This document shows positions 4,250 to 22,027 of a DNA stretch of 64,000 nucleotides, in pieces. Under the pieces are notes generated by a model. It saw only the letters and a program-made list of their open reading frames with translations, did not search any database and was not told the origin of the DNA. Origin of the DNA: an uncultured Nitrospiraceae bacterium (GTDB lineage Bacteria > Nitrospirota > Thermodesulfovibrionia > Thermodesulfovibrionales > Dissulfurispiraceae); contig CAVPIW010000006.1 in assembly GCA_963705105.1 (NCBI GenBank), positions 672,001 through 736,000 of the forward strand, given 5' to 3'. The position numbers and the translations under genes are program-made. The first letter of the stretch is position 1. Each line of letters begins with the position of its first letter.

Positions 4250-7200
4250 CTATTGCTTAGTATGGCACTTCGTGCCAATTAACTTCTTGGCTGAGTCATA
4301 CTTTGCCGTCCAGCGATTGCAATACTGATAGTCAGGGGAGAGGCCTAATACTGGCTCTTCGTTGATGCCCAGATATCTTTCTTCGATCTTGTTTCCAGCC
4401 GGGTCATACGCAAACTTCGTAATGTGTTGGTATCTGCCAAGAAGTCTTGCAGGCTTACCATCTGTTCCAAAATATCTTTTCTCGATAACTCGCCGCTGGC
4501 TGTCATACTTCTGTGTCATTCGAGCATAACCGATTAACTTATCGTACAAAGCGTTATCGTCTCCATAGCAAGCACGCTCTACTTGATTGCCGGCGGAGTC
4601 GTATTTATAGGTCTGGACCGCACAGCTACTGTTCGGAAGTATCTTCGGTCTGCCATCGCCTCCAAAGTAAGCTTCCTCTACGAGATTGCCGCGAGCATCA
4701 TATTTCATACTCATACGCGCATACCCATACTTCGCTTCCGAGGGCTTACTTTTATCATCAAATGCAGAGATTTCCGTGAGGTTCCCTCGATCATCGTATT
4801 TCTTCAATAAGCGTGAGTATTTCGATGCATTCATCACCGGCTGCCCCTCATCGTCAAAGGTCATTTGTTCCACGAGTTGCCTTCGACTATTAAATTTTTG
4901 TGTACATCGATGATATCTGTTCCCTGTCATAATGGGTTTGTTGTCATCTATTCCAAAATAGGCTATCTCCGTCTGATTGCCGTAACCATCGTACTTGGCT
5001 CTGTAACTCGCAAAACCCCATTCATTATTTTCTCCCTGCCATGGAATAAGAACTGGCTTTCTCTCGGTATTCAGATAGACCTGATAGCTCACTTTGCCTT
5101 TAACATCATATTTCATACGAGTTTCTGCATATCCCAGTACGCCTTGTGTAAGTTTCCCATTCGTATCAAAATAGGATTCGCTTGTCATTTGTCCCAATGG
5201 GTCGTACGTCCGTACGATCTTGGCAAATCCTTCGTTGCTATTAGTCAGTTTTCTATTTACAGCATAGTAGGCTATCTCCCGTTCCTTGCCTTGGGTGTTC
5301 CTTTTGATTTCAACTGTTGCGTATCTTGTTCGCTTATTCATAACTACCTTACCATCTAGCCCTTTGTAGGTAACTTCTGTTTCGTTTCCAAGATGATCAT
5401 ACTTATATCCGATCTTGTGGTATCCATCGCGATGGACAATGGGGCCTTCAGGACCAAAATATGCCTTCTCTATTGGACATCCTTCCTCCTTTAAACATCC
5501 CCGTTCGTCGTAAAGCCTCACTTCCCTATGGAACCCTTCATCCTTGTAGAAAGCCGGTTTGTCTTTAGCATCGTAAAACAATTGTTCAGTAACCCTCCCA
5601 AACGGGTCATACTTCTTGACGAGAAGTGCGTAGCCCTCTTCAGAGGTAACACGACTGTCATCAATGCCATAATATGATATTTCGATGGCTTTGCCCTGGT
5701 CGTTATAGCGTCGTTCGACTGAGTGGTAACCACCTTTTATGAACACTTTCTCAACATAGACCCCAAAGTAGGCGCTCTTCTTCTTGTTTCCGCGTAAGTC
5801 ATACTCGTGAATCGCACGCGCCCATCCGTCCTTATGCAAGACAGGCTCCCCATTAATGCCGAAATATGCCTCCTCAATAGGCTGATTTTGCGGATTAAAC
5901 TCTTTCTTCCAATAAGAATACCCGCCAGCTCTTTCATCTTGCCAAGGAACAAATGCTGGCTTGCTGTTGATATCCAAATATCGCAGATCTATAACATTTC
6001 CATGAGCATCATACTTCCTAGTCCAGCCCGCGTAGCCCTTTCGGTGCGTTACCGGACTTCCGTCTAATCCGAAGTACTTTTGCTCTATCTCATTGCCAAG
6101 AGGGTCATATTCGGATGTGTACCCTGCCACTCCGTCGCTTGATAACGTTTGCTCACCCCTTAAGCCTGTGTATGTGCGTCGCCTTTCGTTTCCTCTCTCA
6201 TCATACTCTGATTTCCAACCAGCATAGCCGTCATGCCCACGCATCGGTTTATCCATGACATTCAAATACACAGTCTCAATCTGGTTCCCGCTCGCATCAT
6301 GTTTTGCGGTCCATCCTGTGTATCCCTCAGTGCTTACGATTCGTTTACCATCGGGACCATAATAGCGAACTCTTACGACGTTGCCATAGTTATCAAATTC
6401 CTGTTCCCATCGCGAATAACCCTTGTTAGAAGCAACGGGCTCTCCCTTGATTCCGAAGTAGGTCGCGCCGATCAATTGTCCATGAACATCATAGCCTCCT
6501 GTCACCTGCGCATATCCTTCCTTGATTAAAGTCCGTGCGCCATCAGCCCCAAAATAGGAACTGTCTTCGAGTTTCCCGGAATCATTGTAACGGTACGTCG
6601 CCCGGGCATAGCCGTCCTTAAACTGCGTTAGTCTCCCTGCAGTATCATAGTAGGATGTTTCCACTAGTTTCTTTAGCCTGACGTCATATTTGCCTTTCCA
6701 GACGGCATAGCCATCCTTATTCGCTGTGAGCTTTTGATCGAGGCCAAAGCAACTCAGTTGGATAGGAAGATTGTCTTCGTCATAAGCCAAAACCAGGCTG
6801 TAGCACCCCCTATCGCCCACCGTAGGCTTATCCTCCATATCCAAGTACATCTCTTTGATGATGTTTCCCTGACCATCTCGTTTCCACTTAACTTTATGAT
6901 AGCCTTTTACGTTGAGTGTTTTTTTCCCATTCTCGTCAAAGTAACCCTCCTCAGTCATATTACCATTGTCGTCATATTCACTTCGTATGACCGAATAACC
7001 GCTCTTTAATGTAACTTTCTCTCCTAATGCATCTAAAGCCTCTTGTTTACGCGGGTTCCCAAAACCAAAGGGATCCAGATCCGTTACCTTTATAGTTGCA
7101 TTGCCGGCCTCGTCGTTCATATATTCATCATTTGGCCCCAATGATGTCTGTTCGAGCAATATTCCTTTCTTGTTGTAGCGCCTTAATTGCCCAAAAGCTT

Positions 7201-9550
7201 TATCGGGCCCACGTATGGCCTGATTGCCTCGATTCCGGTAGCGTCTGTATTCTTCGATGCCTTTCCCGGTATCTCTATATTCAATTTCTACATAACTCTC
7301 AGCGTACTGCTTATCCTTGCGAGGATAACCAGTGTCGTCTACAAAATATCCGGTTCGGACTCTCTCCCGCCCGCCTTCGGGAGGTAAATAGACAAATCCC
7401 CATATTCGCTTCCCTTTGTTATCAAGTGCTGTTTCATAAGAAACACGTTCTTGGGCATCGTAATTGAACTCCCAGGCAACCTCATTGGGTATTCGCTCTT
7501 CCGATGATTCGAGATAAGTGCCGATACGATGAATGGGGGTTAATTTTCCCTTGCTATTGACTGTTTCCATGCGAAGAACGGGACCCCATTTGCCTTTTCT
7601 TATGATTTTGATCGAGACAGGACGATGCTGGACCTGTGCGAGCGTCAATTCACCGACTCCTCTCGGCTCGCCTAAGAAAGGGCGATGCTTGACTTTTGCA
7701 AGAATCAATTCGCCGAACCCCTTCGGCTCACTATGGACCTTAACAAAAGAGCTGAAGTATTCGACATAGTCCCAATGCGTCAGATAGCGATGCAGAAGAA
7801 TGCCTACAATCAGCATCAACACCGCTGTGCCGAAACCCACGGCAAGCCGACGCATCATCTTAAGCTTTTCACGTTGTTCGGCCTCACGCTGCAGTGCCGC
7901 TTCCTTCTCCCGCTGCGCGCGATCAAGAGCTTCGGTGCTTGCCTGAACAAACTCCTTCTCGAGACGCGTGAGGTCTGCCTGCTTTCTTGCCTCTTCCAGC
8001 TGCCATTCCCTAAACAGACCATCCCAGTCTTTGGATTTTCCTTTTGCCTCCCATTGATGCGCCGCCTGAGTAAGGGAGAGGCGATCACGAAGGATGCGGC
8101 GTTTATCATCGATCCACCCTGCTAAGAGCGGCCAGTTGCGGACCAGTGACTCGTGCTTGATCTCGACCACATCGTCGGCACCACTGACGCCGGGCGTGAT
8201 GCGCAAGTAGTCGTTCTTCTTAAGCAGTTCAAGCACTTCCTCCGTGTTCGCCTTGCCAGCCTGCAGCAAGCGGCTTTTGGGCAATGGCTGGCGATAAGCC
8301 TCGAGCATCTCATCGACGCGTACCAACTCGAGGAGTATACGCTTGATCTCTGTCTGGGTTTGCTCTATTTGTGCGAGGTAGAAGGTATCGGCGGCGTTCT
8401 TGAGTGCCTCCAGGGGATCGCCTACTGTTCTGTAAACCTCCCAGGTGATTCGGTTTCGTTTGCGTTTCTCCCAAAGTGCGTGCAAGGTGAATTGTAACAA
8501 CGGAAGCGCCGCGGGCTGGCCGAGCACCTTCTTCACTAGGTCGTCTACAATTCCTGATTGGAACTGTAAGTTTACAAGGGCAGCAGGCTTCTCTACCGCC
8601 GCCGTTAATTCCTCATAACTCATTGGCCGCATCCAGTACCTTGAGGGGCTCAGTTCACGCAACTCATTGATCTTACTATCGAACTCAGCACGCACGGTCA
8701 GAATCACACGGTGGCCCCGAGCGGCATCCAATAGATGAGCGAGGTTTCTTACCAGTGCCTCACGGTCTGCGGGGTCGGACAGCGTGAACACTTCCTCGAA
8801 CTGGTCGATAGTGATCAGTGCAGTCACCGCGTTTTCTTCGCCAAGCATGGCATAAAGATATTTGGGATCCTGCCGAAGGCGTGTCACCTCCTCTGCGACG
8901 ATGCTGTTCGCGGCTGGGTGGGCTTGTCGAACAGCATTTACTAGGTTGTCGAGTACGGAATTACCCGGAACAAATGGCGGAATGACGAACAACTCAGGCA
9001 TCGCGCCTTTCTCCTTGAGCGCCGGCAGAATGCCCCCCATCACAAGGGAAGACTTCCCGCTACCAGACGCGCCAAGCACGACAACAAGCGGCTCTTGACG
9101 AAGTTTCGTCAGCAGCTCCTTTATGTCATCCTCTCGGCCGAAGAAGTTCGCCCGGTCGCGAAAGGCATCGAGGCCGACATAGGGACATAGCTTGTCCTTC
9201 AGGTCCGGCAGTTTCTCGCTGTCGAAGGGGGCCAGGTTTGCAGGCGGTACCACGATCCCCGCCCTAAACAGGCAGGAGACCCAATAGTCCAAAAGCACCT
9301 GGCAATCAGAGCGCTGAAGGATCTCTTCGATATAGACCCCTGTCGCTGCCCCACGTTCCAAGAATTGCCTGAGCTTTGGTTCAAGCCTCGCCAATGCGAC
9401 TGCTTCGCTCTTATCGGCTGCGTCTTTCTTAAGCTCAATACTCAAAGCTTTCATGAAGGCGGCGTGCTCATCCTGCAGCTCGGTCGCACTCTCGAAGGGC
9501 TCCACTCGGCGAAACTGGTCCGGATTTGACATATCTTCCCTTTCTAACAT
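4250..9550 (-). CDS. Membrane-anchored nSTAND1 (NLR-like) NTPase: N-terminal helical domain, STAND, coiled coil, TM helix, YD-like 32-aa repeat ectodomain
   Basis: CPYVGLDAF, FFGRE, Walker A GASGSGKSS, Walker B ITIDQFEE, LPLLQFTL, IKHESLVRNW; TM LAVGFGTAVLMLIVGILL; repeats of YDxxGNxxExxYxGxxGxP...GY. The true start may be 9532. Confidence 0.85.
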   Translation of the reverse strand: MLEREDMSNPDQFRRVEPFESATELQDEHAAFMKALSIELKKDAADKSEAVALARLEPKLRQFLERGAATGVYIEEILQRSDCQVLLDYWVSCLFRAGIVVPPANLAPFDSEKLPDLKDKLCPYVGLDAFRDRANFFGREDDIKELLTKLRQEPLVVVLGASGSGKSSLVMGGILPALKEKGAMPELFVIPPFVPGNSVLDNLVNAVRQAHPAANSIVAEEVTRLRQDPKYLYAMLGEENAVTALITIDQFEEVFTLSDPADREALVRNLAHLLDAARGHRVILTVRAEFDSKINELRELSPSRYWMRPMSYEELTAAVEKPAALVNLQFQSGIVDDLVKKVLGQPAALPLLQFTLHALWEKRKRNRITWEVYRTVGDPLEALKNAADTFYLAQIEQTQTEIKRILLELVRVDEMLEAYRQPLPKSRLLQAGKANTEEVLELLKKNDYLRITPGVSGADDVVEIKHESLVRNWPLLAGWIDDKRRILRDRLSLTQAAHQWEAKGKSKDWDGLFREWQLEEARKQADLTRLEKEFVQASTEALDRAQREKEAALQREAEQREKLKMMRRLAVGFGTAVLMLIVGILLHRYLTHWDYVEYFSSFVKVHSEPKGFGELILAKVKHRPFLGEPRGVGELTLAQVQHRPVSIKIIRKGKWGPVLRMETVNSKGKLTPIHRIGTYLESSEERIPNEVAWEFNYDAQERVSYETALDNKGKRIWGFVYLPPEGGRERVRTGYFVDDTGYPRKDKQYAESYVEIEYRDTGKGIEEYRRYRNRGNQAIRGPDKAFGQLRRYNKKGILLEQTSLGPNDEYMNDEAGNATIKVTDLDPFGFGNPRKQEALDALGEKVTLKSGYSVIRSEYDDNGNMTEEGYFDENGKKTLNVKGYHKVKWKRDGQGNIIKEMYLDMEDKPTVGDRGCYSLVLAYDEDNLPIQLSCFGLDQKLTANKDGYAVWKGKYDVRLKKLVETSYYDTAGRLTQFKDGYARATYRYNDSGKLEDSSYFGADGARTLIKEGYAQVTGGYDVHGQLIGATYFGIKGEPVASNKGYSRWEQEFDNYGNVVRVRYYGPDGKRIVSTEGYTGWTAKHDASGNQIETVYLNVMDKPMRGHDGYAGWKSEYDERGNERRRTYTGLRGEQTLSSDGVAGYTSEYDPLGNEIEQKYFGLDGSPVTHRKGYAGWTRKYDAHGNVIDLRYLDINSKPAFVPWQDERAGGYSYWKKEFNPQNQPIEEAYFGINGEPVLHKDGWARAIHEYDLRGNKKKSAYFGVYVEKVFIKGGYHSVERRYNDQGKAIEISYYGIDDSRVTSEEGYALLVKKYDPFGRVTEQLFYDAKDKPAFYKDEGFHREVRLYDERGCLKEEGCPIEKAYFGPEGPIVHRDGYHKIGYKYDHLGNETEVTYKGLDGKVVMNKRTRYATVEIKRNTQGKEREIAYYAVNRKLTNSNEGFAKIVRTYDPLGQMTSESYFDTNGKLTQGVLGYAETRMKYDVKGKVSYQVYLNTERKPVLIPWQGENNEWGFASYRAKYDGYGNQTEIAYFGIDDNKPIMTGNRYHRCTQKFNSRRQLVEQMTFDDEGQPVMNASKYSRLLKKYDDRGNLTEISAFDDKSKPSEAKYGYARMSMKYDARGNLVEEAYFGGDGRPKILPNSSCAVQTYKYDSAGNQVERACYGDDNALYDKLIGYARMTQKYDSQRRVIEKRYFGTDGKPARLLGRYQHITKFAYDPAGNKIEERYLGINEEPVLGLSPDYQYCNRWTAKYDSAKKLIGTKCHTKQ

Positions 9551-10668
9551 ACTCGCAAGAGAGTCTGTAACGGTTGGTTTAGTTCACTCAGCCGGTTGCA
9601 AAAATCCTTAAGTCTTCTGTCGGCTTCCCGGAACGCGGTACCCACAAACTGCGAGTAGTTCATGAGTAAGATCCTCGCCTGCTTCTTGTCATTATGATCT
9701 AGTGCTTCATCGATAACGATTTCCATCTGACTCAGCTTTTCCTTAAGATTGTCCATGTCTTTGTCTATGAAGGGTGGTATGAGCTCTGAAGCTGCCGTCT
9801 TGGTCAATTCCCACTCACAATCCAGCCCCCCCGGTGAGAGTTTATTTGCAAGCAGGGCGCGCAACCCATCATCTAGCCTCTGTAGTTGGCCATGCTCCCT
9901 GACTCGTCTCTCAAGATCTGCTCGCAACCCGTTCAGTGCATTTATGCTCTGAACAAACTGCACAAGTAAGACATCGTTCTCAGGATGCTCCACGGACAGA
10001 GTTTCCTTTACCGACTCTAATAGCTCCACAAGACGATTCAGCTTCAGCTCCTTTGCAGCGTTAGATATCATAGAATCGAGCCTCGGTGGAATTCTGGAAC
10101 GCAGCTGTTCGAGCCCAGTCTTCACCTTGTCTAAGATAGCAGTATTTTCGGGTGCATTCACAGCCTCTTGGAAGTCCGCTTCAATTAAATCGAGTCGCTT
10201 ACCAAGATCTGGAAAGGGGTCGGTCTCACGTCCCCTGATTGCCTCCTTGATCTGATGAGATTGTTGATCAAATTGAAATTGAAGCGGATCCAGCCAAATT
10301 CTGGTCCTCCTAAGTGCCTGCATTTGGCGAAGGATTTCGAATTCAATAGTATGCAAGGAATCATGAATGGTCTTCAAAAGTTGCATCTCACTGATTCGCT
10401 GTGCAGTATCCCGCATTTCTTGGGAGAGGGTTACCCCGTTGCATGCCGTTGGATCATTGGAAATCCGGTCTGTGAGCTGTTTGAGGCCTATCTTTACAGA
10501 GTCAAGTAAACCCGGAAAGTTGATAACTATCTTGTCGCCTCTCACCTCATCCCCATGGACGAGTTTGTCACGTCCTACAGAATCGCCGCCGACGCTGACA
10601 TTGTCCTTGAAGTACGCGCCACCGGCCTTTTGATCAGCCCCTGATTCCTTTCCGTCTTCAGTCGTCAT
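9544..10668 (-). CDS. Putative adaptor: N-terminal amyloid-like motif plus an all-alpha helical domain
   Basis: N-terminal GGAYFKDNVSVGGDSVGRDKLVHGDEVRGDKI is shared with the upstream caspase; the rest is Leu/Glu-rich and helical; its stop abuts the STAND start. Confidence 0.65.
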   Translation of the reverse strand: MTTEDGKESGADQKAGGAYFKDNVSVGGDSVGRDKLVHGDEVRGDKIVINFPGLLDSVKIGLKQLTDRISNDPTACNGVTLSQEMRDTAQRISEMQLLKTIHDSLHTIEFEILRQMQALRRTRIWLDPLQFQFDQQSHQIKEAIRGRETDPFPDLGKRLDLIEADFQEAVNAPENTAILDKVKTGLEQLRSRIPPRLDSMISNAAKELKLNRLVELLESVKETLSVEHPENDVLLVQFVQSINALNGLRADLERRVREHGQLQRLDDGLRALLANKLSPGGLDCEWELTKTAASELIPPFIDKDMDNLKEKLSQMEIVIDEALDHNDKKQARILLMNYSQFVGTAFREADRRLKDFCNRLSELNQPLQTLLRVC

Positions 10669-10752: not shown

Positions 10753-12162
10753 CTATTTCCCCTGAATCTTATCCAGCACGAATTTGGTGACCGGCCCGGC
10801 GATTCCACCCAGAATCGGGGAGGCAAAAATACTCGCAATACCACTCACTGCTTCTGGAACTAGGGCAATCAGTCCATCGATCAGCTTGCCCATCTTGTTA
10901 TCATCAGCTGCCTTCCCTTTTGCTACTTCCTGTTTTAGCTCCTCTACCTTCTTCAGAGCCTCTGTCTGATTGGCGGCGGGCACTTCCCGAATGGATGACA
11001 TCAACGGTTCGAACAATCTTTGAAGGTCCTGATCAGATATCCCTGTGGTGACGGTGGACCGGGCGCCCCGGCCGATGGCGATCCCCTGACCAGAAATGTC
11101 CCCCACCGTTATCCTGTCGCCTAGAATTTTATCGCCTCTCACCTCGTCTCCATGGACGACCTTGTCACGGCCTACAAAATCGCCGCCGACGCTGACAGCC
11201 CCCCCGATGTACGCACCGCCGCCAGTATCAATAGTGGTCACAGTACCTGCTTTTTCACCCTCAAGAGGTGCGAGCGGATCGGGTGCTGCCAAACCCTTCG
11301 CTATACCTTTGCCGCCCAGGAGCAATGCGATCGGGAAGTTCCCGCTTACCTGGTAATCCGGCTCCTGCGGCTGACCCCAGTCAGCTTTCACGCTTTCCGG
11401 TACGTTGCGCCACACATAACTCATCACGTCGGAGACTAACACCTCCTTGGCACCCTCTTCGGGCTGCGCATGGCCAGTCAGCGCTTCGATCAAGTGATAG
11501 GTAAAGATGCTCATCTTCCCGTCCTTGCGCATATAAGAAGGTTGTTCTCCCTGTGAGGAACTCAGCACAGCCCGACCTGCTCCTTTGGTCAGCACTTCCA
11601 AACCCTTAGCGCCTTCCTTTGGAGTTACTCCCTTGGCTGCTGACATGAATATTTGCGTTGGAATGGCAGATCGCTTGTAAGAAGCAATGCCTTTAATTCC
11701 CATGCCGCCGGAATGACAACAGTCAAGTACTACGAAGAGACGCTGTGGTTTAAGAGCATTAATGGCATCAGCGAAGTCCTCTGCCCTGAGAGCACTTGAT
11801 TTGAATGCCTCCTCGTCCACGTCGTACGGAATGAGAAAATACTGAGGCTGCTGGCCGTCGTCTCGGTCTCCATGTCCTGAGTAAAACACGATAGCCGTGG
11901 CATTTCCGCTTGCATCATCGTTAATCTTCTTCTTTAGTCGGGTTAGCCCTCCAAGGATATTCGCGCGAGTCGAATTCGACCCCAGGATGACTTCGACGTT
12001 TTTCTCAAGATAGGCACACCGCTCCGGATGGACAAGTACATTTTGCAGAGCCGTAACATCTTTTTCCACATCAGGAAGAGCCCATGTGGGATTGCTGTTT
12101 TCGTTAACTCCAATCAACAACGCATATCCACTAATGAATTGCTTTGCCATTTCCTCCTCCAC
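10753..12162 (-). CDS. Caspase-like peptidase C14 with a Gly-rich amyloid-like linker and a C-terminal helical domain
   Basis: ALLIGVN, FYSGHG (catalytic His), VVLDCCHSGG (catalytic Cys), SIFTYHLIEAL. Confidence 0.9.
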   Translation of the reverse strand: MEEEMAKQFISGYALLIGVNENSNPTWALPDVEKDVTALQNVLVHPERCAYLEKNVEVILGSNSTRANILGGLTRLKKKINDDASGNATAIVFYSGHGDRDDGQQPQYFLIPYDVDEEAFKSSALRAEDFADAINALKPQRLFVVLDCCHSGGMGIKGIASYKRSAIPTQIFMSAAKGVTPKEGAKGLEVLTKGAGRAVLSSSQGEQPSYMRKDGKMSIFTYHLIEALTGHAQPEEGAKEVLVSDVMSYVWRNVPESVKADWGQPQEPDYQVSGNFPIALLLGGKGIAKGLAAPDPLAPLEGEKAGTVTTIDTGGGAYIGGAVSVGGDFVGRDKVVHGDEVRGDKILGDRITVGDISGQGIAIGRGARSTVTTGISDQDLQRLFEPLMSSIREVPAANQTEALKKVEELKQEVAKGKAADDNKMGKLIDGLIALVPEAVSGIASIFASPILGGIAGPVTKFVLDKIQGK

Positions 12163-12281
12163 CTATGGTCGGTTCTGATAAAGAGTGAGACATCCAACAC
12201 GGTACAAGCGTTCCCCTTAGTCATCTCATTCGAGAACCTGTTGTACTAGAGTAGAGCTGATCGGCATTTCTCTTTGTTTGT

Positions 12282-13079
12282 TCAGAAGCCGGAGACCTTG
12301 ACAAAGGCGCTCTCACTGGCGAGCTGCCCCACTCTATCTGACTTTTTCTTCTTGATCCCTTTAATGGCCGCTGATCCTGTCTCCAGCGGCTCGTATGTCG
12401 TGTAGCGCCCCTGATCATAGAAAAGACGCACTGCCTGAAAGCCGAACACAAGCGGAATGGAGGACTCGTATGTCACCTTGGAGGTTACCGAGGATGCGCC
12501 TGAGGTTTTCACGTTCCCGCCCACGATGCCTTGAATCTCAGGGATGCTGACATCGAGCGCCGCTCCATTTGATTTCTTCGCTTCAACAGTGAACTTCGTC
12601 CCCTTGATGGTCGCCGTGGTGACATACAGTTCATCCGCTTCCAACAAGTCCGCGACGTAGCGGGAGAAAGGGCTCACATCAGCGTCTGCCAGGTACTGGT
12701 CAAGTTTGATAATCTCAACGCTGTCCTCGAACACATCCTGAAATTCGAACGCGGCTGTCTTTGCCTGCTCATACTTCATATCGAGCCCGAGTTTTGAGCC
12801 GCCCATCGCACCGATTATGCTGCCGAGGATCGACAAACCAACTCCTATGCTCAGGTCACCTGTGCGCTGACCCGAGATATCGGCAGTACGGGCATTCTGG
12901 ATGGCCGGCGGGGAAATATTCTTGCCGGCCACGAGGAGTGTTGTCAGATCGCCCAGGCGAGTGAGGTCCTTCCCGTTGCGGGATAACACTTGAAGCGGCT
13001 TGACATCTGCCTTGGGCAAACGAATCACATTATAGCCAAAAGACTTGAGATAGGTGAGGAATGGATCGTTGCAGAACAT
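12282..13079 (-). CDS. Bacterial gasdermin (bGSDM)
   Basis: 265 aa. N-terminus MFCNDPFLTYLKSFGYNVIRLP has the conserved Cys3; also LYVTT..IK...FTV, TY....PLVFGFQA and a short C-terminal peptide ending VKVSGF. Strong recalled similarity to the Vitiosangium and Runella gasdermins; flanked by caspases. Confidence 0.93.
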   Translation of the reverse strand: MFCNDPFLTYLKSFGYNVIRLPKADVKPLQVLSRNGKDLTRLGDLTTLLVAGKNISPPAIQNARTADISGQRTGDLSIGVGLSILGSIIGAMGGSKLGLDMKYEQAKTAAFEFQDVFEDSVEIIKLDQYLADADVSPFSRYVADLLEADELYVTTATIKGTKFTVEAKKSNGAALDVSIPEIQGIVGGNVKTSGASSVTSKVTYESSIPLVFGFQAVRLFYDQGRYTTYEPLETGSAAIKGIKKKKSDRVGQLASESAFVKVSGF

Positions 13080-13131
13080 TGTCTGACCTCCATATTAAAC
13101 GCGGTACCTGAGTTCCGCAAGATGGTTGTCG

Positions 13132-13184
13132 AGGTTGCCGACTTCTCCCTGCAGAATCCGGTAGAGGGCAGAAGCCGGCAACCT
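13132..13184. other. Intergenic hairpin upstream of gasdermin
   Basis: AGGTTGCCGACTTC...GAAGCCGGCAACCT inverted repeat; no U-tract. Confidence 0.55.
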
Positions 13185-13247
13185 TCACATCAAGTCATCA
13201 AAGTGACCCTTGTCAATATCGCCATTGCTCACTCAAGGCATCGCAGT

Positions 13248-14105
13248 CTACACAAAGCGGGCCTTCCTCTTGGTCGCCTCGCACTCCAGCTGAGGTATCT
13301 GGCTGTAATGACCGGCTTGAAGTCCTTTTCTGACCTGCTCGAGCACCTTTTTTCGGGAAAGCTTGTTTTTGCTGTCATTCATCACCTTGCAGAAGTGGTA
13401 GGTGAAGGCCCCGTGCCAGCCCCCAGCGATGTATGCATCAGCGCTGGTCTGATCAGACCGGCAGCCTGCCCAGAGGATGTGATGGATAATGCCTTTTTCG
13501 AGCATCGATTCATACAGTCCGCGGGATCGACGCCCCTCGACCATCTTGAAGGCTTCGTAGGAAGGGGGCGGCATCCATCGCGGTTTGCGGTCAGGCAGGA
13601 AATCAAGAGCTTTGATGCCCGTGCCGCTGTGGCAGGTATCAAGATAGACTTCCAGTAGGACGTTCGCCGGCAACTGGACGAAGAGATCATGCAATTCGTC
13701 ATCGACAATGATGTATTTCGGGTCCCAGATACTCCCGGCCGACGCCAGGTCATGGGGGCAGACGGCCTCGTCTGCTCTATCCGGCTCGTCCCCGCTCGTA
13801 TCCGGCACCTGGGTCCCGTGGCTGGACAGGCTGAAGACCAGGTAACTGTATTTCCCCTTCTTGGCCCCGTCTACCATTTCCTTGAGATTCTTCATGATGT
13901 TCGCTTTCGTGGCCTGGGTGTCTGTCAACTTGACGATATCTCCAGGGCCAAAACCGAGCCACTTCTTGAGCAGGGCTTCCATGTCATTGGCGTCATTCAC
14001 ACAACCCTGTAACGCGCTGCCGGGATAGTTTTTGAAGTTGTTGATCCCCACACACAGAGCTCTCTTTGCCATGATTTTCTCCTCCTTGTTCGTTTTCATG
14101 CTCAT
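13248..14105 (-). CDS. Metacaspase-like peptidase C14
   Basis: RALCVGIN, LQGCVNDA, SLSSHGTQVPD (His), YLDTCHSGT (Cys), DQTSADA, GAFTY. Confidence 0.92.
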   Translation of the reverse strand: MSMKTNKEEKIMAKRALCVGINNFKNYPGSALQGCVNDANDMEALLKKWLGFGPGDIVKLTDTQATKANIMKNLKEMVDGAKKGKYSYLVFSLSSHGTQVPDTSGDEPDRADEAVCPHDLASAGSIWDPKYIIVDDELHDLFVQLPANVLLEVYLDTCHSGTGIKALDFLPDRKPRWMPPPSYEAFKMVEGRRSRGLYESMLEKGIIHHILWAGCRSDQTSADAYIAGGWHGAFTYHFCKVMNDSKNKLSRKKVLEQVRKGLQAGHYSQIPQLECEATKRKARFV

Positions 14106-14120
14106 GACCTCCTTCTGAGA

Positions 14121-16217
14121 TCATTCCGTTACAATCCATATGGGGTTTGTTACGCACCGGAAAAGCCCCTCGCCCGTCTTGGGGTTTATGCGTGAAGCGG
14201 CCTCCATCCGCAGGTAGCAGGGACTCTCTGTCCATGCTGAAAATGTGTGTACGATGCTGCCATGGAAGCCGCTTTCTTTGTTCCCGAGAGTCGGGAGACC
14301 GATTTCATCGGTTATGTCTGTTTCGGCATCAGCAGTGCCCCGAAAGAGATGTATTCTTTCAATGGGCCCGAACTCCTCATTACTTTGCCATTCAATATGC
14401 AGGTCGAGACTTTCGCCGGGTGGAATAGTGAAAGTGTCGCCAAATCGGTACTCCTTCTCATCTCCTTTCTTGCGGAGGGAGAAAAACACAATGGGGCCAT
14501 CGCTCAGAAGGGCCCTGCCGGCTTTCAGAGCGCCGAGAAGATCAGCCTCAGTCAGCGCCTCGCCAGCCTCTTTCGGCAGATACGCCAGGGTGCGCACCTT
14601 GCCAAAGGCGTTGTCGTTGAGAGTGTGGATGAAGAACACAGGATGGGGGCGGAAGGCACAGTTGAAGTCCATATGGGCGTCTGAGCCGGCGAGGACAAAG
14701 TACTTCTTCAGTGTCTTTATCTGCGTATATTCCCGCAATGACGGCCGGAGAAAGTGCTCAACCCAGTGCTCACGGATTCCCGTGTCAAGATCATGCGACC
14801 AGGACTTCTTCTTGTCAGTCTTTTTGAACATCTCATAGGGATCGAGGTAGGGGCGGTCGATCGAGGAGTCGGTAGTACACTCCATGAGGATCTTTTCATT
14901 GAAGATCTGAAGACCACAGAACAGGTCTCTGTATCGGGGATTCATGACGACGGCATAATCCTCTTCGTGCCAGATGTACCCGTTTGAGGAGGGGTGAGCG
15001 GCATACAGGAATCCCTGTCGGGGCTGCGGACTCAGTAGTATCCGTTCAAAAACCTCTGCCATCGTCAGGGTTCCGAATCCCGCGATGTGCGTGTCCTCGA
15101 TGAAGGGATTATCGTAAGAAAGGACATGCAGGCCGGCAAAGTATTTCCTCACGGTGACCTCTTCGGCGGCGACCAAGAGGACATCGGGATATCGTATGTT
15201 TGTATCAGCCACTGCCTTCTTGTAAGAAGACCAGCGGTTTCCCTGCTCTTCTTCCTCGTCGGTCTTCGTGTGGCCAAGGCAATAGGAATGGTCGGTCACT
15301 GTCACCCAGGCAAGACCCGTTGCTCTGGCTACCTCGGCACTCATCGGCAGGGGGCTGCCGTACTCGTAAGGGTTGTCGGTAAAGTCAGAGTGGAAATGCG
15401 TGTCACCATACAGCCATCCGTCAACCCGGGGTAGATCGTATTCAGAGACAAGAGTGCGGAGGACGATCTGCTTACTCCTGTCGATTCCGAGAAAGCCTTC
15501 AAATGTGATGATGACGCAATAATGGAGGTAACGGGCCTTTCCATACGCGGGATGGGTCCAGTCGACGGGCGTGAAACATTTCCTGTCGAGATGAATGATC
15601 CTGTACCAGGGATCGGTGTTGACCGTCTCGTAATCCTCGCCTTCGTCGAACCTCAGGGGAGCAGGCATGCCGTTTTCCTCGACCTCTGCACCTTTGGTGT
15701 CAAGCACCTTCACTATACTGCCGGGAGGAAGCGACTGCGGCGTGCCTCCCGATGACGACGTCCAATGATTGAAGGCGATGGATCGGATTCTGATCTTTAC
15801 GGGACCAACGTCTTTAAGGTATACAATCACAGGGACATAAGGGCAGCTCTTTTCAAGCCGGTAGGGCGCGTCGACCACGAGATCCATGGCAGGCGTATTC
15901 GGCTGTTTTGCGGCTGCTCTCTTTTCAAATTTGTGTTCTACTTTGTCCTTGTCCAGCTCTATTGTTTGGCCCTTGACGATAGGACGTCCGGTGTCGGCAT
16001 CTATGACCTTGAGCGTATAGGTGCCCCTTGGAATGCCTTCAATCTCGACGTAATATGTGCCATTATCTTTCTTTAGCTTGGTGTAGTCCTCCAGGGCGGT
16101 TCGAATCACTTTCCTGGATCTCTCTCGCTTGAGCTCGATGATCACCGGCTGCCAAAAGCGACCCATTTCATGGTCACCGATGTCGAAAGCAACCCGTATT
16201 GTTCCTCTATCTCCCAT
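14121..16217 (-). CDS. PHP-fold (CehA/McbA-like) metallohydrolase with N-terminal beta domains
   Basis: GDTHFHS, VTDHS, YAAHP, AGSDAH and TNPIW motifs; RBS AGGAGG. Confidence 0.75.
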   Translation of the reverse strand: MGDRGTIRVAFDIGDHEMGRFWQPVIIELKRERSRKVIRTALEDYTKLKKDNGTYYVEIEGIPRGTYTLKVIDADTGRPIVKGQTIELDKDKVEHKFEKRAAAKQPNTPAMDLVVDAPYRLEKSCPYVPVIVYLKDVGPVKIRIRSIAFNHWTSSSGGTPQSLPPGSIVKVLDTKGAEVEENGMPAPLRFDEGEDYETVNTDPWYRIIHLDRKCFTPVDWTHPAYGKARYLHYCVIITFEGFLGIDRSKQIVLRTLVSEYDLPRVDGWLYGDTHFHSDFTDNPYEYGSPLPMSAEVARATGLAWVTVTDHSYCLGHTKTDEEEEQGNRWSSYKKAVADTNIRYPDVLLVAAEEVTVRKYFAGLHVLSYDNPFIEDTHIAGFGTLTMAEVFERILLSPQPRQGFLYAAHPSSNGYIWHEEDYAVVMNPRYRDLFCGLQIFNEKILMECTTDSSIDRPYLDPYEMFKKTDKKKSWSHDLDTGIREHWVEHFLRPSLREYTQIKTLKKYFVLAGSDAHMDFNCAFRPHPVFFIHTLNDNAFGKVRTLAYLPKEAGEALTEADLLGALKAGRALLSDGPIVFFSLRKKGDEKEYRFGDTFTIPPGESLDLHIEWQSNEEFGPIERIHLFRGTADAETDITDEIGLPTLGNKESGFHGSIVHTFSAWTESPCYLRMEAASRINPKTGEGLFRCVTNPIWIVTE

Positions 16218-16289
16218 GTCTCCTCCTAAAGGCTATACCCCGCAGTCAAAAAGGTTCCGGCAAAAAGGCCGAGCCCACTGAACGCGTCT

Positions 16290-16376
16290 ATCCTTCGGCA
16301 GCTCTGCCACCTTATCGTTACATAAGACCCGCCGCTTTCCGTCGCACCCTCGCAGATGGGTTCTTCTTCGTGATTC
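16290..16376 (-). ncRNA. GEMM-I (c-di-GMP-I / 3',3'-cGAMP) riboswitch-like aptamer
   Basis: Minus strand CACGAAGAAGAACCCATCT-GCGA-GGGTGCGACGGAAAGCGGCGGGTCTTAT-GTAACG-ATAAGGTGGCAGAGCTGCCGAA gives a GNRA-capped P2, the GACGGAAAGC junction, a paired P3 (GCGGC/GCTGC and GTCTTAT/ATAAGGT) and a 3' TGCCGAA. The P2 base is imperfect. Confidence 0.7.
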
Positions 16377-16539
16377 AAAGGCTGATGCGGCGCTGCGCAG
16401 TACCCGCAGGTCGTCTGTTTCGAGCTGGCTATCAATCGTCGCATTTATCCTATTTCTGATTTCTATATACATATATAACAGAAAATATCGACATTGTCTT
16501 GACATTTCTTCTCTTTCTTTTGATCTTTTTTGCTTTTTT

Positions 16540-16736
16540 ACCTTATCGTTGCAATGTACTCCCGGGAAAGGGGGGGTGTATGCGCCGAAAACCTTGCTGC
16601 GGCGACACCTGTATCAAAACGCGAGATGAACTATACGCCAATGTCTGAAAAAGGAGCCTTTTTGCTGACACTTACACTGCCACTGACACTGTTCTTCAGA
16701 GCGCTTCGCCCCCCCTTTTTTATGCAACTCAAAGGT
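16540..16736 (+). mobile_element. MITE-like modular inverted-repeat element, copy 2
   Basis: ACCTTATCGTTGCAAT...TATGCAACTCAAAGGT; same internal modules as copy 1. Confidence 0.85.
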
Positions 16737-16917: not shown

Positions 16918-17424
16918 CCGCACCTGTTATCTCTGCATCTTCCTGATTATTTCGCCCAGCTTCTTGATTTCTTCTCCGTATAACGCCCAGTTCCCCTCCC
17001 TTTGGGCATTCATAGCGCGGTCATAATGCTCCCTGGCATTCGAAGCGAGATTCTTTTCATCCTTCACAGCAGGAAGCTGCAGGGACTTCAAAGGCGCCGC
17101 CTCTTCCGAGACCCTGACATCGCCGAATATCCTCGAAAGCGCGGCATCGAGCGTCTCCTCCATGGCGATGCGGTTTTCGTATGCGACGACGACCCTTTTG
17201 AGTTCCGGTATCTTGCCCTTGTCCGCCCTGAGGTAAAGCGGCTGAACATATATCAGGGAATTTTCGATCGGTATAACCAGCAGGGTCCCCTGCATCACCT
17301 GTGAGCCGCGCTGGTCCCAGAGAGATACCTGCCTTGATATCTCGGTATCCTGATTGATTCTGGCGACTATCTGTTTCGGCCCGTACACGAGCCTGTCCTT
17401 CGGAAAACGGTATTACGAGCTTCC
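16918..17424 (-). pseudogene. Duplicated 3' end of the UPF0182 gene
   Basis: Near-identical direct repeat of 19044-19552 with scattered substitutions (ends IIRKMQR versus IIKKMQK). Confidence 0.9.
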
Positions 17425-17427
17425 GGC

Positions 17428-17898
17428 ATGAGGTTCCGCTACGACCAATCGCGGCCGAAGTTCGACGCCGTCACGGCCATTAAGCTGGGTGATCTCGATC
17501 GCGGCTACAAGACTATCGACATCAGTGGCAAGGACGGACGCTTGTACAGCCTCACCTGCCCCCTGATGGTCGGCCAGTTTATCGTGGCCATCCCCAAGTA
17601 CACCAAGGGCAAACTGCCGCTCGTAGCCAAAAACAGGAAGGGACAGCAGCTCAAGTCCAAGGTCGAGGCGCTCGAAGAGCCGCACGACAGCACTACTCCG
17701 TACGTGCTGCCGCCGCAGGGCAAGATGGACGGGAAGAGTGTCGCCACCGTCGGGAAGAGTAAAGCCGGTCGTGAGATCAAGGAGTGGCAGGCGATCATGG
17801 ATTACCTCCGTAGCCTGCCGGTCAAGAGCAAAGGCGATCTGCCCGTGATCCCGGTCGATGAGCGCGCCGCAGAGGTCCGGGCGATCAAAGAGGGATGA
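17428..17898 (+). pseudogene. C-terminal fragment of a 5'-nucleotidase / bifunctional metallophosphatase
   Basis: SGMRFRYD.SRP.FD.VT and EIKEWQAIMDYL resemble 5'-nucleotidase C-terminal domains; the 5' part is replaced by the UPF0182 duplicate. Confidence 0.6.
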
Positions 17899-21814: not shown

Positions 21815-22027
21815 ACCTTTCAGTTGCATGAAAAGGCGGGGCGAAGCGCCTCAAAGCCTTGCTGAAGGCGACGATGAGCCTCGTCGGGTTCGTCATTCAG
21901 GATTCCACTCTTCGTGTCATCGACCATTGGTGTATGGATTGTCTTTCGTTCTGATACAGGTGTCGCCGCAGCAAGGTTTTCGGCGCATACACCCCGCCTT
22001 TCCAGAGGGCGTATGCAACGATAAGGA
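21815..22027 (-). mobile_element. MITE-like element, copy 3 (reverse)
   Basis: ACCTTTCAGTTGCATGAAAAGGCGGGG...CCCCGCCTTTCCAGAGGGCGTATGCAACGATAAGG. Confidence 0.85.

Follow-up and report, generated by a model that had tools for sequence, protein, structure and literature searches.

The leader of a gasdermin-containing defence gene run in an uncultured Nitrospiraceae bacterium carries a degenerate c-di-GMP-I (GEMM-I) riboswitch aptamer, and we judge it probable (about 0.62) that an ancestral c-di-GMP ON switch headed this defence operon and was pseudogenised in the present genome, where it is most likely non-functional. The locus lies in a 64,000-nucleotide stretch (the window; GenBank assembly GCA_963705105.1, contig CAVPIW010000006.1, positions 672,001 to 736,000). 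The element stands, where a first-pass annotation of the sequence had placed it, in the leader of a PHP gene, which codes for a PHP-fold hydrolase on the same strand; 75 nt separate the end of the aptamer (16293-16373, minus strand) from the start codon, the ATG at 16217. The features of the leader are listed below; Vc2 numbering was transferred to the aptamer by alignment, and pair names follow PMC11705072.

16293-16373, minus strand: degenerate GEMM-I (c-di-GMP-I) aptamer, from Rfam, the lineage model R1 and a 41-aptamer alignment
16369, minus strand: G14
16363, minus strand: G20, with nucleotides 21-22 deleted between 16363 and 16362
16359-16344, minus strand: P2, with its GCGA loop at 16353-16350
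16341, 16340-16339 and 16338, minus strand: C44, G45-G46 and A47
16307, 16305 and 16298, minus strand: G83, the mismatched base 85 and C92
16262-16308, minus strand: intrinsic terminator of the subfamily type, excluding P3/P1; the 5' arm is the aptamer 3' strand (16308-16294), the 3' arm is 16282-16267 and the U5 run is 16266-16262
16248-16272, minus strand: second small hairpin (5 bp) with a second U5 run, absent from the orthologous locus L053 and competing for the terminator 3' arm
16222-16227, minus strand: AGGAGG ribosome-binding site of the PHP gene, read from the sequence and conserved in L053

The proposed resemblance of this leader to GEMM-I was borne out by covariance models. RF03167 matched the aptamer at 30.4 bits (E 2.5e-5 for 451 nt against 4227 Rfam families) and RF01051 at 29.9 bits with the whole model (1-87) aligned; the Rfam check is thus positive by E-value but not by gathering score (59 and 35, respectively), and no gathering-level match was found across the entire window. 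The lineage model R1 was built on 41 high-scoring intact aptamers, a set biased toward the consensus (28 of 30 related-genome loci, with L141 and L153 left out, five over-cut-off copies from the same genome and eight further loci), and it scored the window aptamer at 44.9 bits (E 1.1e-12 over 115 kb), with a runner-up at 9.7 bits. Judged by these model scores, the window aptamer is a real GEMM-I homologue and not a chance match. RF01051 has nine matches in the same genome, five of them over the cut-off, and 74 of 141 related genomes contain at least one GEMM-I copy. Minimum free energy folding gave no support for the window aptamer (z +0.05 to +0.88), and an intact paralogue did little better (z -1.2).

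The GCGA-capped P2, the GACGGAAAG junction and the TGCCGAA end named by the first-pass annotation are all there, and J1/2 is 2 nt short as it had noted, since all seven other aligned copies in the genome have two extra bases. With nucleotides 21-22 deleted, neither of the pairs roofing the pocket, 21-46 and 22-45, can form. These pairs flank the binding site (PMC11705072). All 41 of the intact aptamers form both, and both partners have changed in 11 of them for the first pair and in 9 for the second; C22 and G45 show high conservation, and ligand stacking is supported by A49, which docks onto G45-C22 (PMC3764141). Only purines run from G14 to P2, and therefore no register shift restores either pair. 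By pattern search the deletion occurs in one of 106 genomes, at the window locus itself, and the intact pattern (pyrimidines at 21-22, GG at 45-46) gives 30 matches in 20 of the 106; no second example of the deletion was seen in viral scans or among these genomes. P3, described earlier as fully paired, is interrupted at pair 55-85 by a G.A mismatch: base 85 (16305) is A, and 39 of the 40 intact aptamers scored form this pair. It also has, at 16310 (54/58-80), a U.G wobble in place of the receptor U-A pair, a type seen in 0 of 41 intact aptamers. A purine at position 85 in the window's context was found in one of 390 genomes, by a pattern that asks for a purine at the site of the intact members' C and so counts the window's variant alone and not the subfamily. 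The likeness of a 13-mer in the P3 loop to the end of the genome's abundant repeat raised the idea of an insertion scar, which was dropped because paralogue L008 has a comparable loop and the genome contains two copies of the exact 12-mer.

In the subfamily to which the aptamer belongs, the P3/P1 3' strand doubles as the 5' arm of a hairpin that is followed by a U run, a layout from which we infer a terminator-type ON switch. The Geobacter GEMM-Ib switch (Gs1761, pilM) has the same fold and likewise is ON by terminator exclusion (PMC10118264). An alternative terminator formed with the aptamer's 3' GCCGA had been predicted; the type of platform stands but the register differs, as the arm 16274-16267 pairs with the P3 3' strand 16308-16301 and not only with GCCGA, and this register is the same in intact relatives. 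The C-to-A change at 16305 hits the shared strand, so P3 and the terminator are both broken, uncompensated: the terminator is computed at -15.4 kcal/mol vs -21.6 kcal/mol with the subfamily base, and its 3' arm still matches the ancestral C. Terminator energies in 14 relatives range from -9.4 to -29.7, a range that includes the window's value, and in the ligand-free ensemble the terminator dominates in 10 of 14 other subfamily members and does not in the remaining four.

The genes that follow the leader are these:

14121-16217, minus strand: PHP-fold metallohydrolase, 698 aa, CehA/McbA-like with beta-rich accessory domains, first gene after the leader
13248-14105, minus strand: caspase-like peptidase C14 with His/Cys dyad motifs (PF00656)
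13211-13216, minus strand: TTGACA hexamer, possible internal promoter, in the 168-nt caspase-gasdermin spacer
12282-13079, minus strand: bacterial gasdermin, 265 aa, with N-terminal Cys3 (NCBIfam, PADLOC and structure match)
10753-12162, minus strand: second caspase-like peptidase C14 (PF00656, dyad motifs)
9544-10668, minus strand: 374-aa protein of no known family in domain searches
4250-9550, minus strand: nSTAND1 NTPase fused to RHS/YD repeats, candidate NLR-like sensor (domain search)

The gasdermin call is sound (NF051890 at 220 bits against a cut-off of 100; PADLOC bGSDM; structure match 7n51, E 4e-45), and PF00656 caspase-like genes flank it on both sides. By its genes the unit fits a bacterial gasdermin-protease system, for which protease-triggered pore formation and phage defence are predicted. 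The PHP protein scores 64.4 bits against NF038032, below the cut-off of 80, and falls with PHP clusters of the atlas at 0.93; its structure model (pLDDT 81) matches the PHP barrel of 2anu in Foldseek (TM 0.63 over the target), the other matches of the whole model being mostly beta-sandwich noise. A second PHP copy in the genome groups at 90% with a protein labelled Dissulfurispiraceae, which would point to Nitrospirota. The defence region has a G+C content of 50.7% vs 57.1% for the genome. In the 4250-9550 product the nSTAND1 NTPase leads, through a predicted hydrophobic segment, into RHS/YD repeats of ~1000 aa, an NLR-like architecture that is unusual.

The ancestral part of the preferred reading draws on one full orthologue, the metagenome locus L053, and one short contig, record 24 of sequencing run X3. 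L053 encodes a PHP protein 85% identical in amino acid sequence, a different C14 gene and a gasdermin 95% identical, followed by C14-TIR, TIR-NTPase-WD40 and TIR-nSTAND1 genes. Its leader is identical to the window leader at 100 of 135 positions (0.74; score 78, against a maximum of 31 in 500 shuffles), and four-fold synonymous identity is 0.73-0.74 (210/286 in PHP, 101/136 in gasdermin), so the leader diverged at about the neutral rate. The homology ends at the aptamer 5' end. No Rfam match at E<=1 was obtained for the L053 leader; its relic is the top R1 match yet reaches 7.1 bits (E 1.2), which alone is not significant. The relic still has pyrimidines at 21-22, but its GNRA loop, C92/P1 and terminator arm are gone; it is more eroded than the window copy, with different lesions. 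Because the two sets of lesions are complementary, the common ancestor would most simply have had a near-intact switch before PHP-caspase-gasdermin. Immediately 5' of the L053 relic, in a way that resembles the intact paralogue L005, come a TTGACA and a -10-like box, and the L053 leader has a long-range basal stem (z -2.4) with no stable counterpart in the window.

Four of the 20 sequencing runs listed were compared with the window. Run X3 comes from a study other than that of run X1, discussed below. Its record 24, a contig of 320 nt at depth 5.21, aligns to 16021-16343 with 39 differences and 11 gap letters; it runs from the 5' end of PHP into the aptamer as far as position 42 and stops short of J1/2. 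Among the X3 matches listed, the subfamily base is present at 16305 in all but 2.0 of 157.2 depth and at 16310 in all 151.4 depth; set against these tallies, the depth of record 24 means that it carries both subfamily bases. Among the same matches, the two contigs that cover 16275-16279 have three changes extending the pairing between the terminator arm and the P1 strand, as in L017 and L020. In record 24 the PHP gene is linked to an apparently intact 3' aptamer half and terminator. Record 18 bridges PHP to caspase, and gasdermin is thinly covered among the X3 matches listed. The gasdermins of three loci (12282-13079 of the window, L053:7335-8132 and L131:10093-10893) are 86-95% identical and stand with different caspase and sensor genes; going by these three loci, the activating module of gasdermin loci is one that swaps rapidly.

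An unlikely alternative, though the most probable of those weighed, is that the leader hitch-hiked, being the riboswitch of another gene or of PHP alone, so that gasdermin, on its own promoter, never came usefully under its control; the aptamer would then be decaying since its place before defence genes is an accident of rearrangement. It draws on the mosaic make-up of the leader, in which the aptamer is preceded by an attC-like half and a promoter-like module:

16381-16424, minus strand: remnant of 44 nt with 84% identity to the 3' half of an attC-like hairpin that lies at another site in the genome (presumably attC, by its consensus), marking the end of the L053 homology
16473-16539, minus strand: A-rich intergenic promoter-like module with the palindrome TGTCAAGACA, found at nine loci including the window, before unrelated genes

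The DNA 5' of the aptamer differs between the window and L053, so the unit was rejoined to new upstream DNA at least once. The module is by inference a candidate promoter of the leader, outside the flags of a sigma-70 scan, and its nine copies (the others at C17:15377, C14:241928, C4:58703, C12:356270, C6:825815, C6:797419, C6:792417 and C7:221810) are possibly a mobile promoter or regulator site. The genome has two integron integrase genes, on C12 and C5; other attC-like hairpins lie far from them, at C7:350640-350800 (two back to back), C5:338546-338592 and C10:164627-164676. A ~190-nt interspersed repeat with inverted ends, MITE-/REPIN-like, occupies 16538-16730 (482 merged loci in all, 127 near full length), with the stretch 16565-16643 repeated at 21925-22003 within the window. 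The 3' end of a UPF0182 gene is duplicated (16918-17388 vs 19044 onward, 98% over at least 300 nt), the copies enclosing a 2.1-kb segment with a gene fragment at 17428-17898.

Distribution also speaks for hitch-hiking. With R1, none of 36 other PHP-family loci had an aptamer nearby (top score 13.7 bits, E 0.13), in a scan that took in 37 of 81 PHP loci plus the own-genome paralogue, many with little upstream DNA, the 44 left out being mostly of 23-34% identity; neither Rfam nor R1 found one at the own-genome PHP paralogue, and none was found at five other gasdermin loci (best 11.4 bits) drawn from 401 genomes of the window's phylum and 401 of another. In genome G410, a gasdermin 86% identical stands without a PHP gene and without a riboswitch. 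By these scans, the pairing of aptamer and defence unit is specific to one lineage of this mobile unit. The PHP gene was found in no relatives (own genome 1/61; full-length in the own genome alone of 317), and a plasmid tblastn gave no match. Further, both full-length copies, in the window and L053, are broken, and the TTGACA lies 131 nt before the gasdermin start, where it (13216-13211) could begin an internal gasdermin promoter, with no good -10 at the usual spacing and no flag in the sigma-70 scan. Against hitch-hiking, the aptamer-PHP junction is common to three lineages (window, L053 and X3) and the PHP-caspase-gasdermin order to two; the caspase-gasdermin spacer is ~64 nt in L053; and the scan recorded no terminator-like site on the minus strand from 16257 to 11899. 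Spacers in the gene run are short except for the 168 nt between caspase and gasdermin, and co-transcription from the leader through gasdermin is plausible. No RNA data set was listed as holding 12200-16540, a negative without bearing on expression. Riboswitch control of gasdermin, as the first-pass annotation proposed it, is given some backing by L053 and X3 for the ancestor; for the present day it is doubtful, because the pocket pairs are absent, the deletion is private to this genome and the TTGACA is a possible promoter.

It is distinctly improbable that the leader gates the operon today as a c-di-GMP switch with reduced affinity, set to respond when ligand levels are high. The window copy keeps the ligand contacts G20, A47 and C92 (contacts as in PMC11705072), the C44-G83 pair, A47-A49, P1 and the GNRA loop, and a check of loop, receptor and long-range pairing found GCGA, C44, G83 and C59-G79 present; the assignment of G20 depends on gap placement, which 30 intact matches back. 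P3 and the terminator compete on nearly equal terms (the terminator's mean pairing is 0.01, 0.63 and 0.58 for three assumed 5' ends), and diguanylate cyclase domains are encoded in the genome. Yet two pairs invariant in 41/41 aptamers are lost through a deletion private to one genome, the P3 mismatch is uncompensated and the orthologue L053 lost its switch. Some residual function may persist, since most contacts are kept and about 5 conserved positions changed; the c-di-GMP-I family binds in the picomolar range (PMC6140456), which leaves a large affinity margin. By hand count the changes amount to about 5 of roughly 55 conserved positions relative to the subfamily, where ~8 would be expected from half of the synonymous distance; this suggests, weakly, that the window copy stayed under constraint over part of its branch.

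The subfamily of the window aptamer has GG at 45-46, two pyrimidines at 21-22 and G at position 20 in 30/30 closest intact matches. GG at 45-46 is shared with Geobacter GEMM-Ib members. The genome has 13 GGDEF matches, and at the motif position taken to be the Hypr Ser site, Asp stands in all seven readable of 12 regions. Hypr GGDEF domains have Ser/Thr in place of Asp (PMC6456294), and none is of Hypr type among those readable. G20 marks the c-di-GMP class and A20, which defines GEMM-Ib, the cGAMP class (PMC6140456). With G20 in all 30 intact matches, the close likeness to Geobacter GEMM-Ib seen by the first-pass annotation is therefore unsupported, and its c-di-GMP-I/cGAMP assignment holds for the GEMM-I family but not for the cGAMP flavour; base 20, ambiguous between G and A in that annotation, reads as G, the base before the deletion, under the gap placement that the intact matches back. 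Two intact GEMM-I copies in the genome, C5:418426 and C16:12046, stand by eye before NiFe-hydrogenase small subunit-like genes, and C5:418426 has A at position 20.

It is very improbable that the aptamer is a variant whose pocket was remodelled to sense another nucleotide, such as 3',3'-cGAMP or a phage-induced signal. Known riboswitch classes do contain rare variants with an altered ligand (PMC5473149), of the Rfam models the orphan variant RF03167 (c-di-GMP-I-GGC) scores best, and immunity genes lie downstream; but the deletion has no second example, the RF03167 consensus prints G at 47 where the window has A47, the closest intact relatives have G20 in 30/30 and the seven readable GGDEF regions have Asp. 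Of the two possibilities raised earlier, decay or mis-sequencing, decay was the right suspicion, and an assembly or sequencing error masking an intact living aptamer is the least probable reading of all: the 2-nt loss sits in a purine run and the genome looks like a metagenome bin, but a Logan contig of run X1 (record 8, 441 nt, depth 4.8), which may itself be the window's source sample, matches 16083-16523, a stretch that takes in all of the leader, with neither a difference nor a gap, and the independent second lesion at 16305 would need to be an error too.

The pseudogenised ancestral switch remains the preferred reading, and its working can be sketched from the relatives' sequence for the arrangement and from the family for the switching. 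In the intact subfamily, c-di-GMP binding would hold P1/P3 together and sequester the terminator 5' arm, and without ligand the terminator would form before the first gene. The ancestor of the window and L053 loci, as their complementary lesions imply, would have had such a switch before the PHP gene and the caspase-gasdermin unit, so placed that the defence unit was transcribed mainly at high c-di-GMP, that is, in the sessile state. In the window genome, 21-22 were deleted with loss of the pocket pairs, and one change weakened P3 and the terminator together; because of these losses the leader is most likely ligand-blind, a leaky fixed attenuator. Rejoining to a new promoter may have been followed by relaxed selection or, speculatively, by selection for signal-independent defence. 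More tentatively, in living close relatives such as the organism of X3 record 24, an intact switch may gate a PHP-caspase-gasdermin-NLR operon, with the window and L053 as independent escapes; we give this clearly less than even odds.

Compared with Vc2 and RF01051, the window copy shares the three-stem layout, GNRA loop, G20, C44/G83, A47-A49, C92 and P1, the 5'-leader position and a terminator overlapping the aptamer 3' strand, and differs by the missing 21-46 and 22-45 pairs, the G.A in P3 and 29.9 vs 35 bits; RF01051 members precede motility, biofilm and envelope genes, whereas the window copy precedes immunity genes. The N-terminal Cys gasdermin, peptidase C14 and NLR-like genes are those of gasdermin-protease systems (Johnson et al., 10.1101/2021.06.07.447441), in whose main text the word "riboswitch" is absent; compared with the systems described there, the window unit has a PHP-fold hydrolase gene at its front, behind a leader derived from a riboswitch. 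CapK/CapS and CapP/CapH are likewise control elements upstream of cell-killing defence operons, but as described in the sources consulted these are proteins answering DNA damage, and an RNA element for a lifestyle second messenger would differ from them. No report of a riboswitch-controlled gasdermin, or of a c-di-GMP riboswitch upstream of an anti-phage defence system, was found in the literature searched, most subscription papers lying outside its reach, and the portion of a second-messenger review consulted does not join gasdermin and riboswitch. The pairing of a c-di-GMP-type riboswitch with a gasdermin locus, and its likely intact ancestral state, thus appear to be new.

If the coupling is real, abortive-infection-type death would be tied to the biofilm lifestyle: cells would arm their suicidal immunity when sessile and high in c-di-GMP, the setting in which a cell's death protects its kin, a kin-selection idea that is directly testable. 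The window's broken copy would be a fossil of this c-di-GMP/gasdermin coupling and a pointer to intact relatives. It also carries a caution that sub-threshold riboswitch matches need checks at pocket level.

The PHP-fold hydrolase family may serve protease-based defence as an accessory not yet described: a caspase-like neighbour is present in 14 of the 28 loci of close homologues, and several have STAND NTPases (the loci concerned are L033, L034, L056, L060, L061, L065, L066, L068, L069 and L071-L074). Two further sub-threshold GEMM-I copies lie in the same genome, at C7:241285-241365 and C6:923307-923407; the C7 copy, which abuts the abundant repeat, no longer has a 3' P1 strand, and the window copy is thus not the genome's only case of riboswitch decay.
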